The translations under genes were made by a program, and so were the position numbers. Below, one piece after another: positions 11,970-16,180 of a stretch of 16,180 nucleotides of DNA. How positions within the stretch are numbered: position 1 is the first letter of the stretch; each line of letters opens with the position of its first letter. Location of the stretch: the sequence record NZ_CP083999.1; one strand, 5' to 3'. The notes below the pieces were generated by a model. That model was not told the origin of the DNA. It worked only from the letters and a program-made list of their open reading frames with translations, and did no database searches. This stretch comes from a plasmid.

Positions 11970-12566
11970 ATGCGGATCGGCTACGCGCGGGTCTCCACCC
12001 GCGACCAGCACCCCGAGGCCCAACGCGATGCGCTCACCGCGGCGGGCTGTGACCAGATTTTCCTCGACAAGGTGTCGGGCAAGCTGGCCCGCCGGCCGGA
12101 GCTCGACAAAGCTCTGCTGTCGGCCAACCGTGTCGGCGATCAGCTGGTGGTGACCAAACTGGACCGGCTGGGCCGATCGCTGGAGCATCTCATCGAGTTG
12201 TCCAAGCGCCTGCAGGGCGCCGGCGTGGATTTGGTGGTACTCGACCAAGGCATCGACACTTCAACGGCCATTGGCCGCATGTTCTTCCAAATCCTCGGCG
12301 CTGTAGCGGAATTCGAGCACGCTTTGATGTCGGAGCGCACCATGGACGGTTTGGCGGCCGCGCGGGCCCGCGGCCGCACCGGTGGGCAAAAACCCAAACT
12401 GGGTCCCCGTCAGGTGAAGCTGGCCCAGCAGATGTACGACGAGAAAGACGAACACGGCAAGCGTCGCTACACCGTCGAGCAGATCGCCGCCGAGTTCGGA
12501 GTCACCCGACCCACCATTTATCGGCATCTGGGCAAGGCCCTTAACAACGGCTCGGCCGCATCATGA
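11970..12566 (+). CDS. Serine recombinase (resolvase/invertase family), 198 aa.
   Basis: The N-terminal MRIGYARVSTRDQ carries the catalytic Ser. The resolvase-core motifs LVVTKLDRLGRS and GRMFFQILGAVAEFE are present. C-terminal HTH: TVEQIAAEFGVTRPTIYRHL. Its stop overlaps the tniA-like start (ATGA at 12563). Confidence 0.9.
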   Translation: MRIGYARVSTRDQHPEAQRDALTAAGCDQIFLDKVSGKLARRPELDKALLSANRVGDQLVVTKLDRLGRSLEHLIELSKRLQGAGVDLVVLDQGIDTSTAIGRMFFQILGAVAEFEHALMSERTMDGLAAARARGRTGGQKPKLGPRQVKLAQQMYDEKDEHGKRRYTVEQIAAEFGVTRPTIYRHLGKALNNGSAAS

Positions 12567-14083
12567 CCCCCCCGCAAGAGCCGGTCAGGACACCGGACGA
12601 AGCGGATACCGCATTGACCATGGCCCAACGCGAACAGGCGATGGCCCGCTACGCGGTGCTGCGCCCACACCTGGACGACGGGATATCGCTGGCCGAAGCC
12701 GCGCGTCAGGGTGAGGTGGCGCTGCGCACCGCGCAGCGCTGGCTGGCCAGCTACCGCAAGTCAGGACTAGTGGGGCTGGTCCGTCCTGGACGCTCTGATT
12801 GCGGCCGCCGCGGGTTGCCCGATCAAATGGTCACGCTGATCGAGGGGCTGGCATTACGACGGCCTCCGATCAGTGCGGCAAATATTCACCGCCAGGTGAC
12901 CCAGATTGCGCCGCAACATGACTGGCCGGTGCCGTCCTACAGCACGGTGTACGCGATCGTCGCGGGCCTCGATCCGGGCTTGCGGATGTTGGCCCACGAG
13001 GGCACCAAACGATACGAGGAGACCTTCGATTTGGTGTATCGGCGTCAAGCGAGCGGGCCGAACGAGCTATGGCAGGCCGACCACACTGAACTGGACCTAT
13101 GGGTGATCACGCCGTCGGCAAAGCCGGCTCGCCCCTGGTTGACTGTCATCGAAGACGACCACTCCCGCGCTGCAGCCGGCTACATGGTCAGCTTGGAGGC
13201 ACCCTCCGCGATCAACACCGCTTTGGCGCTGCGGCAAGCGATTTGGCGCAAACCCGATCCCGGTTGGCCGGTGTGCGGCATCCCTGGCGTTTTCTACACC
13301 GACCACGGCAGCGACTTCACCTCCCGGCATATGGAGACCGTAGCGGCCGAACTGAAAATCCAACTGGTGTTCTCCCTGCCCGGCAAGCCACGCGGCCGGG
13401 GCAAAATCGAGCGGCTGTTCAACAGCGTCAACCAGATGTGCCTGTCGACGTTGCCCGGCTACGCGCCACGCGGAACCCCTGATCGAGCCGGACAGGCCCG
13501 GCTCACCCTGCCCGAATTGGACACCGCGATCGGGCGGTTCCTCAGCGACGGCTATCACCACCGGGTGCACAGCGAGACCCGCCAAACACCAGCACAGCGC
13601 TGGTCGGGCGGCGGGTTCTTGCCCAGGATGCCCGACTCGTTGGAGCAACTCGACCTGCTGCTGCTCACCGTGGCCCAGCCCCGCAAGATCCACCCCGATG
13701 GAGTGCACTTCCAAGGACTGCGCTACCTAGACCCGGTGCTGGCCGCCTACGTCGGCGAACAGGTCACCATCCGCTACGACCCGCGCGACCTGGCAGAGAT
13801 CCGCATCTTCCACGACGACAAGTTCGTCTGCCGGGCGATTTGCCCCGAGCTGGCCGGCACCACCGTCGCGCTCAAGGAAATAACCGCCGCCCGCAATGCC
13901 CGCCGCCGCGAACTACGCCAAGGCCTTCGTGATCGCGCCAAGGTTGTCGACCAGCTCATCGCCGTTCATCAGCCCGACTGCAACTACCCGCTGCCTGGGA
14001 TGGCCGTAGCGGCTAGTGGGCCAGCCGACCTCGACCAGGATTCGGCGCCCAAACATGCGCTCAAGCTTTACCGAGAGGACTGA
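12563..14083 (+). CDS. tniA: TniA / Tn552 p480-like (Mu-type) DDE transposase, 506 aa.
   Basis: N-terminal HTH. The rve integrase core carries D (WQADHTELD), D (YTDHGSDF) and E (GKIERLF). A Mu-transposase C-terminal domain signature follows (IHPDGVHFQGLRYLDPVLAAYVGEQVTIRYDPRDLAEIRIF). Confidence 0.85.
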   Translation: MTPPQEPVRTPDEADTALTMAQREQAMARYAVLRPHLDDGISLAEAARQGEVALRTAQRWLASYRKSGLVGLVRPGRSDCGRRGLPDQMVTLIEGLALRRPPISAANIHRQVTQIAPQHDWPVPSYSTVYAIVAGLDPGLRMLAHEGTKRYEETFDLVYRRQASGPNELWQADHTELDLWVITPSAKPARPWLTVIEDDHSRAAAGYMVSLEAPSAINTALALRQAIWRKPDPGWPVCGIPGVFYTDHGSDFTSRHMETVAAELKIQLVFSLPGKPRGRGKIERLFNSVNQMCLSTLPGYAPRGTPDRAGQARLTLPELDTAIGRFLSDGYHHRVHSETRQTPAQRWSGGGFLPRMPDSLEQLDLLLLTVAQPRKIHPDGVHFQGLRYLDPVLAAYVGEQVTIRYDPRDLAEIRIFHDDKFVCRAICPELAGTTVALKEITAARNARRRELRQGLRDRAKVVDQLIAVHQPDCNYPLPGMAVAASGPADLDQDSAPKHALKLYRED

Positions 14084-14090
14084 CCACGTC

Positions 14091-15081: not shown

Positions 15082-15675
15082 ATGGCAGCGACCTTGGGCT
15101 ACGCCCGCGTCAGTACCACCGGCCAGGACCTTGATGCACAACTGGCGGCGCTTGCCGCTGCCGGCGTCGACGACGCCGATCGCGTGTTTACCGACAAACT
15201 CTCCGGCTCGGCCCGGACCGAGCGGCCCGGCCTGGCCGCCATGCTTGCCTACGCCCGGGCCGGCGACACCGTAATCGTCGCGGCGATCGACCGGCTCGGC
15301 CGCTCGGTCGCCGAAGTCACCCGCACTATCGTTGTCCTCGGCGAGCGTCGAATCCTGTTGCGGGCCTTGCGCGAAGGGGTCGACACCGCGACACCTACCG
15401 GTCGAGCCGTGGCCGCCATCATGGCCACACTCGCCGAACTCGAACTCGAACTTGGTCGGGAACGACGAGCAGCATCGCGACAATCTCGGCGCAGCCGCCA
15501 GCTGCCGGCCACCAAGCCGACCAAGCTAAGCCCCGAGCGGCAGGAGCAACTTCGTCGGTTGGCCGCTACGGGAGAGCCCGTGCGAGAACTCGCCGCGGCC
15601 TTCGGAATTGGACGCGCTACCGCCTACCGCTACCTCAGTTTCACAGCTCCACTCCCCCTAACGGAAGGCATATGA
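15082..15675 (+). CDS. Second serine recombinase (resolvase family), about 197 aa from the ATG at 15082. The ORF track extends it to a TTG at 15037.
   Basis: MAATLGYARVSTTGQD carries the catalytic Ser. Core motifs VIVAAIDRLGRS and GRAVAAIMATLAELE. C-terminal HTH: VRELAAAFGIGRATAYRYL. Confidence 0.85.
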   Translation: MAATLGYARVSTTGQDLDAQLAALAAAGVDDADRVFTDKLSGSARTERPGLAAMLAYARAGDTVIVAAIDRLGRSVAEVTRTIVVLGERRILLRALREGVDTATPTGRAVAAIMATLAELELELGRERRAASRQSRRSRQLPATKPTKLSPERQEQLRRLAATGEPVRELAAAFGIGRATAYRYLSFTAPLPLTEGI

Positions 15676-15678
15676 AAT

Positions 15679-16180
15679 ATGACGCCCAAGTCTGCCCCAA
15701 ATCCTCGTGATCACAGCCTCGGCGGGTGTGAGCAGGCGAAAAAGCCCGGCTGCATCTGCGGGTGCCACGGAGCGTCGCATCAGTCCACGGTGCTGCGTGA
15801 AGCTGTCCGCACCGAGAACGATGTACCCGATCGGGACAGAACAGAACCGCTGACCAAGGCCGAATTCGATGATCTCCTCACCAGGGTGTTCGGACAACGA
15901 TTCACCTCACTCGACGCTCCGACAGATGGCCAGATTTCCCGCCGCACATGGAATCCTGACGCGCAAACCGGCGGCCAGCGCAGCCAACGCGAACAGCGCA
16001 TCGTCGATGTCACACTGCGCGACGTCCTGGCAATCACTTTTGACCTACCCGATGAGGCCAAACAATCATGGCTGACCATCCTGGACGCGCTCACTCTCAA
16101 AACCGGATGGGACAAGTTCGCCGCGCAGCTCGATAACCTCGGGCTCGAAACCACCCCCCAGAGCGGATACTTCTGGTCCG
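15679..16180 (+). CDS. Partial CDS, 3' end outside the window. Protein with a Cys/His-rich N-terminal cluster (C-x7-C-x-C-x-CH-x3-H).
   Basis: ATG at 15679, 3 nt after the recombinase stop, with a ggaagg motif upstream. The frame is open to the window end (at least 167 codons) with good GC3 bias. It is absent from the ORF track only because it lacks a stop in the window. Confidence 0.5.
   Translation, partial: MTPKSAPNPRDHSLGGCEQAKKPGCICGCHGASHQSTVLREAVRTENDVPDRDRTEPLTKAEFDDLLTRVFGQRFTSLDAPTDGQISRRTWNPDAQTGGQRSQREQRIVDVTLRDVLAITFDLPDEAKQSWLTILDALTLKTGWDKFAAQLDNLGLETTPQSGYFWS

Follow-up and report, generated by a model that had tools for sequence, protein, structure and literature searches.

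Gene content of the locus

The region of interest lies toward the right-hand side of a 16,180-bp stretch of plasmid DNA (sequence record NZ_CP083999.1; the window, in what follows, is this whole stretch) and contains, in order, a serine recombinase gene (Rec1), genes for a DDE transposase (A) and an AAA+ ATPase (B), an interval rich in repeats, a second serine recombinase gene (Rec2) and a cysteine-rich open reading frame (Table 1). All of these genes had been listed in an earlier note made from the sequence alone, and each of them is present, as are the ATGA overlap between the Rec1 stop codon and the transposase start and the 3-nt gap between the Rec2 stop and the start of the Cys-rich ORF. 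Mechanical calling of open reading frames opens the ATPase at 14016 and Rec2 at a TTG at 15037; we used the RefSeq-type start at 14091 for the former and a start at 15082 for the latter.

Table 1. Features of the window, with positions numbered from its first nucleotide.
Feature	Position	Strand	Basis
Transposon, left-truncated copy (positions 825-4062 of the 4,062-bp full element)	11762..14999	+	Identity to full copies
Deletion junction, plasmid backbone to transposon	11762..11763	.	BLAST of pP7b, L002 and L004 against the window; junction sequences
Cargo gene remnant, first ~41 nt	11762..11802	-	Annotation of L002, L004 and L005; alignment
Intergenic region upstream of Rec1; presumed transposon res, contains palindrome TCGTTAACGA	11803..11969	.	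Position only, by analogy with the stretch preceding binL in Tn552
Rec1, transposon serine resolvase (BinL equivalent), 198 aa	11970..12566	+	Pfam Resolvase, E 6.6e-45
DDE transposase (p480 equivalent), 506 aa	12563..14083	+	Pfam rve and Mu-transpos_C
AAA+ ATPase (p271/TniB-like), 286 aa	14091..14951	+	Pfam AAA_22
Right terminal inverted repeat	14946..14999	-	89% agreement with the left repeat of full copies across 66 nt; terminal base shared by all copies
Remainder of the plasmid res region	15000..15081	+	100% identity to pP7b
Rec2, plasmid serine resolvase WP_084020053.1, 197 aa	15082..15675	+	Pfam Resolvase and HTH_7; found in transposon-free pP7b
Cys-rich ORF, first 167 codons of 381 aa	15679..16180, rest at window 1-644	+	Window ends contiguous in pP7b

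Rec1 and Rec2 are both small serine recombinases, each matching PF00239 and containing a YARVST motif, and they are only 37% identical to one another. The HTH_7 domain is recognized in Rec2, and Rec1 scores 23.5 for this domain, just under the cut-off of 23.8. A search for repeats upstream of Rec1 (11790-11975) yielded one weak palindrome and nothing else, and the res of the transposon was therefore assigned by its position.

The transposon and its full-length copies

From position 11762 to 14999, the window is 100% identical (3,238 bp, zero mismatches) to the M. gordonae contig L009 and to L026, in which the matching sequence forms part of a larger unit. This unit, which measures 4,061-4,063 bp in 12 contexts, is bounded by terminal inverted repeats with TGTGAT termini, and one M. 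gordonae contig of 4,062 bp corresponds to exactly one copy of it. Full copies with both ends present occur in sequences L002, L004, L009 and L026-L035, and the transposon is carried with both of its ends in many mycobacteria. Many identical copies, flanked by target duplications, are distributed across different replicons and species, and the portion residing in the window is 99.97-100% identical to the copies in other species and plasmids. The full element is organized as left repeat, a cargo gene, res, Rec1, DDE transposase, AAA+ ATPase and right repeat, such that four genes account for all 4,062 bp.

The terminal repeats of full copies are 54-66 bp long, and each contains two 20-nt direct sub-repeats, which are presumed to be transposase-binding sites. 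In the window, the right repeat starts with 5'-TGTGAT, reading inward from 14999, overlaps the stop codon of the ATPase gene and has its sub-repeats at 14976-14995 and 14952-14971. The target duplications are direct repeats of 6-8 bp, as seen in eight contexts (all full copies outside the window). No duplication was present in three contexts, L027, L031 (= L002) and L032, so that some junctions have been reshuffled by recombination.

The product of the cargo gene in full copies (WP_068021939.1, 262 aa) had no match in Pfam, NCBIfam or PADLOC. As a candidate core transposition factor it was rejected, and it is treated here as cargo, because it is missing from S. aureus Tn552 and from relatives in Sphingomonas (whose gene content is rec, A and B only) and Nakamurella (A and B only).

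The empty plasmid site and the truncated end

The M. avium plasmid pP7b harbors both Rec2 and the Cys-rich ORF without the transposon, and can therefore be used as an empty site. On either side of the transposon, window and plasmid agree at 99.98-100%, reaching 100% from 15000 onward, and pP7b has 128 bp in place of window positions 11763-14999. The break in identity at 14999/15000 is sharp, with the Rec2 region being only 74% identical to that of L002. Because the terminal inverted repeat stops at 14999, between the ATPase gene and Rec2, and because transposon-free pP7b matches the window from the very next base, both Rec2 and the Cys-rich ORF are backbone genes of the plasmid.

These boundaries alter how the locus is to be read. 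The two recombinases, which the earlier note had viewed as flanking the A/B pair within one unusual element, reside in separate neighbors, a result that the note itself had named as refuting its proposal; its fallback, that two elements were fused, was essentially right, in that a transposon and a plasmid backbone lie side by side. The interval from the ATPase gene to Rec2, taken in the note for a res-like repeat region, divides at the same point: positions 15012-15077 are indeed plasmid res, but 14946-14999 are the right terminal repeat. What remains of the plasmid res array consists of TGTCTC(G) repeats at 15012, 15024 and 15038, which are the sole occurrences of TGTCTC in the whole window, and a palindrome, CACTGTC...GACAGTG, at 15051-15077.

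The Cys-rich ORF had been described as partial and considered as an alternative target selector. It is incomplete at the end of the window but is whole in nature, encoding 381 aa and continuing at window positions 1-644. It also occurs in plasmids and integrative elements devoid of Tn552-like genes, and it produced no match to TniQ HMMs and no structural match in libraries of solved structures. It is a backbone gene, unrelated to TniQ, that lies outside the transposon, and the proposed role in target selection falls away.

At the other end of the transposon, position 10011 of pP7b is joined to transposon position 825, with a microhomology of 1 nt only at the deletion junction. On the plasmid side, 128 bp are gone (10012-10139 in pP7b), the res palindrome among them, and on the transposon side the left 824 bp, comprising the left repeat and most of the cargo gene. 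When the left repeat was sought in the window, allowing up to 12 mismatches over 54 nt, the right repeat alone was recovered, and a generic scan of 11000-16180 for inverted repeats returned only G+C-rich chance pairs. Given these losses from both transposon and plasmid res, the window copy is probably immobile; and since its left end has been deleted, its own target duplication is not visible.

Insertion into plasmid res sites

Hunting for res sites is known for both Tn552 and Tn5053, and members of the Tn5053/Tn402 family are referred to as 'res site hunters'. In 8 of 10 contexts that were retrieved without regard to their flanks, as well as in the window and in L004, a serine recombinase gene that reads away from the element has its start codon 75-106 bp beyond one end. 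Measured from the right junction in the window, the first TGTCTC repeat is 12 bp away and the Rec2 start codon 82 bp; in L004, which belongs to the same family of plasmid replicons, a complete copy flanked by a 7-bp duplication lies 5 bp from the window's site. At L026, there is a resolvase pseudogene remnant at 93 bp; at L030, there is no recognizable res site, only a resolvase fragment 388 bp off.

The transposon occurs in both orientations among these contexts, and the reconstructed empty sites fit a single res architecture, which is conserved across six of them, with every duplication falling within the same spacer. Within a mycobacterial plasmid res site, the preferred target thus maps to the spacer that separates the accessory repeats from the palindromic site. 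Relatives occupy comparable positions: the Sphingomonas element lies between tnpA and tnpR of a Tn3-family transposon, and in L006, 68 bp separate S. aureus Tn552 from a plasmid recombinase gene downstream of it. Insertion hot spots of Tn552 are plasmid res sites next to sin/res resolvase genes (PMC3276174).

Origin of the arrangement

We consider it very likely (with a probability of about 90%) that the window represents a small M. avium plasmid of the pP7b type in which a Tn552-family transposon inserted into the plasmid res and was later truncated on its left. According to this history, the 4,062-bp transposon would have entered the ~45-bp spacer between the palindromic site and the TGTCTC array, and insertion at this point, 82 bp upstream of Rec2, would by itself yield the order Rec1, A, B, repeats, Rec2. 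A subsequent deletion, using 1 nt of microhomology, would then have eliminated the left 824 bp of the transposon along with 128 bp of plasmid res, leaving the copy with one end.

What is known of the family suggests how such insertions may come about. The transposase would bind both sub-repeats of each terminal repeat, and the ATPase would act as a target-DNA adaptor, as do MuB, TnsC and TniB. The target may be picked by recognition of the res site, presumably when it is occupied by its resolvase. A TnsA-like nuclease is lacking, so that transposition probably proceeds replicatively; the resulting cointegrate would be resolved by Rec1 at the transposon's own res.

If the module instead derived from an element of the Tn5053/Tn402 family (tniABQR) that had lost tniQ and undergone rearrangement of tniR, we would expect a DDE transposase and an AAA+ ATPase of this superfamily together with hunting of res sites, both of which are observed. 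Such an origin is nonetheless very improbable: the transposase shares about 30% identity with TniA (67% of its length aligned) versus 45% with p480 (86-89% aligned), Tn552 is matched both in gene order and in the overlap of recombinase and transposase genes, the duplications are 6-8 bp and not 5 bp, and none of the full copies contains a remnant of tniQ.

We attach still less credence to the possibility that the juxtaposition arose by recombination between two plasmids, either resolvase-mediated or homologous, with the module being a res-bounded cassette. The hybrid flanks of L002/L031, L027 and L032, none of which has duplications, indicate that recombination of this kind does occur around the transposon. 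However, the plasmid sequence in the window takes up again precisely where the terminal repeat ends, the neighboring insertion in L004 is complete and duplicated its target, and clean duplications are found in eight contexts. The least probable reading of all, a single composite transposon with two serine recombinases (one for resolution, the other for inversion or targeting) and with the Cys-rich ORF replacing TniQ, would accommodate the order rec, A, B, rec in the window, and the distant relative L014 from Pseudarthrobacter, with two recombinase genes inside perfect 49-bp inverted repeats, demonstrates that such an architecture exists somewhere in the family; but for the window it is refuted by the empty site in pP7b and by a right repeat that ends ahead of Rec2, and, moreover, all 12 of 12 full copies are 4.06 kb with Rec2 outside, and the Cys-rich ORF, with neither a TniQ HMM nor a structural match, recurs in transposon-free contexts.

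Insertion into the plasmid res followed by truncation is ordinary, well-understood biology: it removes the apparent anomaly, and neither a novel target selector nor novel transposition chemistry has to be invoked. A second recombinase gene does lie inside the inverted repeats of some actinobacterial relatives, 25-45 bp past the ATPase gene. L014 is a clear case, and L011 and L015 are probably organized in the same way; a search for the ends of the latter two returned none at the thresholds used. Through res hunting, these elements come to lie just ahead of a resolvase gene that is not their own. One might speculate that genuine two-recombinase elements have evolved from juxtapositions of the type that the window shows, although we regard this as unlikely. 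If true, a Tn552-family element would be able to take over the resolvase belonging to the res site that it hunted, generating a new dual-resolvase variant that perhaps targets, or resolves at, two kinds of res site. A weaker alternative assigns a part in targeting to the conserved 262-aa cargo protein.

Our analysis documents a Tn552-family res-site hunter with identical copies in plasmids of the Mycobacterium avium complex, in M. gordonae and in other mycobacteria. The empty site, at least 10 independent insertions and the occurrence of both orientations make up a clean natural data set, and the transposon, which flags res sites and resolvases in poorly studied mycobacterial plasmids, might be employed as a natural tool or marker in studying their biology. 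A search of the literature turned up no description of a native mycobacterial Tn552-like element, and its sole returns were citations of Kirby et al. 2002, a paper whose title points to Tn552 and cryptic M. avium plasmids.

Relationship to Tn552 and Tn5053/Tn402

Judged from sequence comparisons, the module is clearly closer to Tn552 than to Tn5053/Tn402, in accord with the Tn552-like label that it was first given. With Tn5053/Tn402 (tniA, tniB, tniQ, res, tniR), it shares the superfamily of its transposase and ATPase, a serine resolvase and targeting of res upstream of resolvase genes. It differs in the low identity of its transposase to the integron-associated Tn402-type TniA, in the length of its target duplications and in the placement of the resolvase gene, which is upstream of the transposase gene in the mycobacterial element and downstream of tniQ in Tn5053/Tn402. 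The reported lack of TniQ is upheld, with no Pfam match to TniQ in any ORF of the transposon or its neighbors; this is, however, the normal state and not an anomaly, as S. aureus Tn552 has no tniQ either.

The resemblance to Tn552 of S. aureus (binL, p480, p271 and the bla operon) extends to each of the shared genes. Rec1 is 44% identical to the Tn552 recombinase, the transposase aligns with p480 (E 3e-150), its D, D and E catalytic motifs in register, and the ATPase is 47% identical to p271 (E 9e-83) with Walker A and B conserved. Both elements have resolvase, DDE transposase and AAA+ ATPase genes in the same order at one end, and in both the resolvase and transposase genes overlap, by ATGA in the window and by 29 bp in the S. 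aureus copy in L006. Full copies of the mycobacterial element, like Tn552, have long terminal inverted repeats starting with TGT (54-66 bp vs. ~114 bp in Tn552). Target duplications are short and variable in both, those of Tn552 being reported as 6-7 bp. Both insert into plasmid res beside a resolvase gene, and truncated derivatives are frequent. Tn552 has been described as having ~120-bp inverted repeats and short direct repeats, with truncated variants being common (PMC3276174).

The mycobacterial element differs from Tn552 in its host, an actinobacterium of ~65% G+C, in its size (4,062 bp vs. ~6.5 kb) and in its cargo, which is a single 262-aa protein as opposed to blaZ, blaR1 and blaI; in addition, the copy in the window is without a left end. 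In this last respect, the closest parallels are the Tn552Δ variants of staphylococcal plasmids, which are likewise one-ended, having kept the resolvase, transposase and ATPase and lost the cargo end, and which likewise lie beside a plasmid resolvase (PMC3276174). They belong to another lineage and another host, and the deletion in the window additionally took part of the target plasmid's res.

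The module and its plasmid

A megablast of window 11700-16180 against plasmids matched three M. avium plasmids of ~15.9 kb at 100% identity, the matches being confined to both extremities of the query. One of these, pP7b (NZ_CP076858.1), was compared directly with the window, and because the two agree block by block (Table), the window is a circularly permuted plasmid of the pP7b type. pP7b contains the second serine recombinase (Rec2, WP_084020053.1) and the Cys-rich ORF that follows it, and is devoid of the first recombinase (Rec1), the transposase and the ATPase: it has 128 bp at the place where the window has 3,237 bp (11763-14999).

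All ORFs named in the earlier note are present in the window, as are the ATGA overlap of Rec1 with the transposase and the 3-nt gap 3' of Rec2. The catalytic motifs of the window proteins are intact by comparison with Tn552, and Rec1 shares only 37% identity with Rec2. What had been described as one res-like repeat region proved to be composite: its first part is the right terminal repeat of the transposon, and the surviving half of the plasmid res makes up the rest.

Table. Features of the transposon and blocks shared with pP7b.
Feature	Window	Other record	Strand	Pfam	Remark
Cargo gene (WP_068021939.1, 262 aa)		L002 4256-5044	minus		sole cargo of transposon
Cargo-gene remnant	11762-11802
Rec1	11970-12566			Resolvase, E 6.6e-45	44% identity to BinL of Tn552
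Transposase	12563-14083			rve + Mu-transpos_C	45% identity to p480 of Tn552, E 3e-150
ATPase	14016/14091-14951 (alternative starts)			AAA_22	47% identity to p271 of Tn552
Rec2	15037/15082-15675 (alternative starts)			Resolvase + HTH_7
Shared block	7521-11762	pP7b 5769-10011
Shared block	15000-16180	pP7b 10140-11320
Shared block	1-4615	pP7b 11321-15936

The Cys-rich ORF (15679-16180), thought to be partial, runs on at window 1-644 and encodes 381 aa in all. Its product is identical to a protein cluster found on 226 contigs. The actinobacterial family to which it belongs is small, numbers 18 clusters, and conserves the N-terminal pattern C-x8-C-x-C-x-C...H-Q and several invariant motifs; a Pfam search gave no match, and no structural relative was detectable. 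The M. abscessus homologue lies in a context of integrative-conjugative type (RepSA, FtsK/SpoIIIE) with no Tn552-like gene and no resolvase. The next gene encodes 182 aa in M. abscessus and is a 177-aa ORF in pP7b; this pair of 381-aa and ~180-aa proteins (the latter being window ORF 781-1314), neither with a family assignment, is shared by mycobacterial plasmids and an integrative element of M. abscessus.

Elsewhere in the backbone, an IS1245 copy (IS256 family) at window 5891-7305 is 100% identical to copies on other M. avium replicons; the adjoining 7306-7520 has no assignment. The IS copy takes the place of pP7b 1376-5768, and since nearly all of the MobF relaxase gene lies within this stretch, the window plasmid has probably lost mobilisability. 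Two large minus-strand ORFs at window 8711-11694 (778 aa, its middle rich in Pro/Gly/Ala, and 221 aa) had no match in Pfam or NCBIfam; the pP7b annotation covers only parts of the corresponding region, one as a 'chemotaxis protein'.

The complete element and the window copy

The Rec1-transposase-ATPase block also occurs on plasmids L002, L004 and L005, where the gene to its left is transcribed divergently and encodes a hypothetical protein of 262 aa, and where BLAST placed the left boundary of the element at an inverted copy of window 14934-14999. Every copy begins with 5'-TGTGAT, and the terminal repeat, 54-66 bp long, holds two 20-nt direct sub-repeats, ATCTTCAG(A/C)G(G/A)TA(A/G)(G/A)TGGCG, at a spacing of 24 nt. 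The unit measures 4,061-4,063 bp between termini (12 contexts), or 5,487 bp with IS1601 inserted, and one M. gordonae contig of 4,062 bp coincides exactly with a single copy, opening on the first base of one repeat and closing on the final base of the other. The cargo protein, which accompanies identical element copies across many mycobacteria, had no match in Pfam, NCBIfam or PADLOC.

Window 11762-14999 is 100% identical to unit positions 825-4062. The right end is retained: plasmid sequence restarts exactly at 15000, and identity to L002 falls to 74% directly beyond the terminus. Absent are 128 bp of plasmid and the element's leftmost 824 bp, which hold the left repeat and the cargo gene except for ~41 nt. 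Because only a single nucleotide is shared at the junction 11762/11763, this loss was an illegitimate deletion. With one end only, the window copy should be immobile, and because the deletion also took the palindromic sub-site of the plasmid res, Rec2 may resolve multimers less well. L004, a plasmid from the same replicon cluster, carries a complete copy 5 bp off the window's insertion site, flanked by the 7-bp duplication GTCGCGG.

Target choice

Insertion into res sites is an established behaviour of both Tn5053/Tn402 and Tn552 transposons. For Tn552, plasmid res sites adjoining sin/res resolvase genes are also documented insertion hot spots (PMC3276174). We sampled contigs encoding the identical ATPase, which yielded the complete element in ten different contexts. 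Eight had clean target duplications of 6-8 bp, rather than the 5 bp named in the earlier note, and because these all differ, they represent independent transposition events. Eight of the 10 have, 75-106 bp beyond one end of the element, the start of a serine-recombinase gene that is directed away from it, one context having such a gene at each end; in a ninth, a fragment of a resolvase pseudogene lies at 93 bp. The same pattern holds for the window (82 bp) and L004 (77 bp), and the element occurs in both orientations.

Empty sites, reconstructed by removing the element and one duplication copy and aligned with pP7b, share one conserved layout, in which ~45 bp of spacer separate a 26-bp palindrome (TGTCTCGTWTCTARAGAAACGAGACA) from three TGTCTC(G) repeats, with a short palindrome and then the resolvase start codon beyond them. 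All duplications fall inside the spacer, at distances of 7-29 bp from the first TGTCTC repeat; in the window, TGTCTC occurs only at 15012, 15024 and 15038. A relative in Sphingomonas, its transposase 53% identical, occupies the interval between tnpA and tnpR of a Tn3-family transposon, again a res region. This is the target pattern of a 'res-site hunter', and the order Rec1, transposase, ATPase, repeats, Rec2, previously viewed as one unusual arrangement, therefore arises as a by-product of target choice; known biology accounts for the anomaly.

Some copies (L002/L031, L027, L032) have hybrid flanks without target duplications, the L002 left flank matching, in inverted form and with a 3-bp offset, that on the right of the L028 site, and similar neighbours (a 1,028-aa MMPL protein and a 487-aa integrase-like protein) stand on opposite sides of the element in L026 and L030. 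These hybrid flanks and swapped neighbours suggest that recombination or inversion has taken place, either between copies or from one res site to another.

Relatives with other gene contents

In three distant relatives with 53-55% transposase identity (Pseudarthrobacter albicanus NZ_JAGPOT010000103.1, 6114-9981; L011, 268-3829; L015, 6168-9729), the ATPase gene is separated by only 25-45 bp, free of any terminal repeat, from a second serine-recombinase gene downstream. Perfect 49-bp inverted repeats (6114-6162, 9933-9981) enclose rec, tnpA, tniB and rec in P. albicanus: here the Tn552-family element genuinely has two recombinases. A clean target duplication was not observed around it, and the two recombinases could reflect capture of a hunted resolvase. 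A minimal relative from a Nakamurella MAG (L010, 6906-9376) has transposase and ATPase genes only, with no resolvase gene, and, bounded by repeats of reiterated ~20-nt units, resembles an insertion sequence.

Proposed mechanism

Homology to Tn552, intact catalytic motifs, ends, duplications, an empty site and a target preference were observed, and the family suggests how they might work together. The transposase would bind the terminal sub-repeats, and the AAA+ ATPase, like MuB, TnsC and TniB, would pick target DNA, probably by sensing the res-resolvase complex. Because there is no TnsA-like nuclease, transposition is probably replicative, and Rec1 would resolve the cointegrate at a putative res, placed by position in the 167 bp upstream of its gene, where a repeat scan found only one weak palindrome.

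Comparison with known transposons

In the literature searched, we found no description of a native mycobacterial Tn552-family element. Kirby et al. 2002, to go by its title, reportedly concerns Tn552 and cryptic M. avium plasmids; the literature matches were citations of it. When the window transposase was compared with plasmids by tblastn, a tier of ~45% identity appeared in Staphylococcus and Enterococcus, whereas identity to the integron-associated Tn402-type TniA of Enterobacteria was only ~30%. The S. aureus plasmid match is classical Tn552, comprising blaZ, blaR1, blaI, recombinase, transposase (480 aa) and ATPase (271 aa), in which the recombinase and transposase genes overlap, the bounding inverted repeats are ~114 bp, and a further recombinase gene of the plasmid is situated 68 bp beyond its other end. 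According to a survey of staphylococcal plasmids, Tn552 encodes p271, p480 and bin and carries inverted repeats of ~120 bp together with short direct repeats, and truncated variants are common, one having kept the transposition genes and bin and lost the cargo end (PMC3276174). Tn552 is also without tniQ, and the absence of this gene here is therefore the family norm. The element differs from Tn5053/Tn402 in having no tniQ, 6-8-bp duplications and a transposase only ~30% identical, and in its complete copies it displays all the testable defining features of the Tn552 family.
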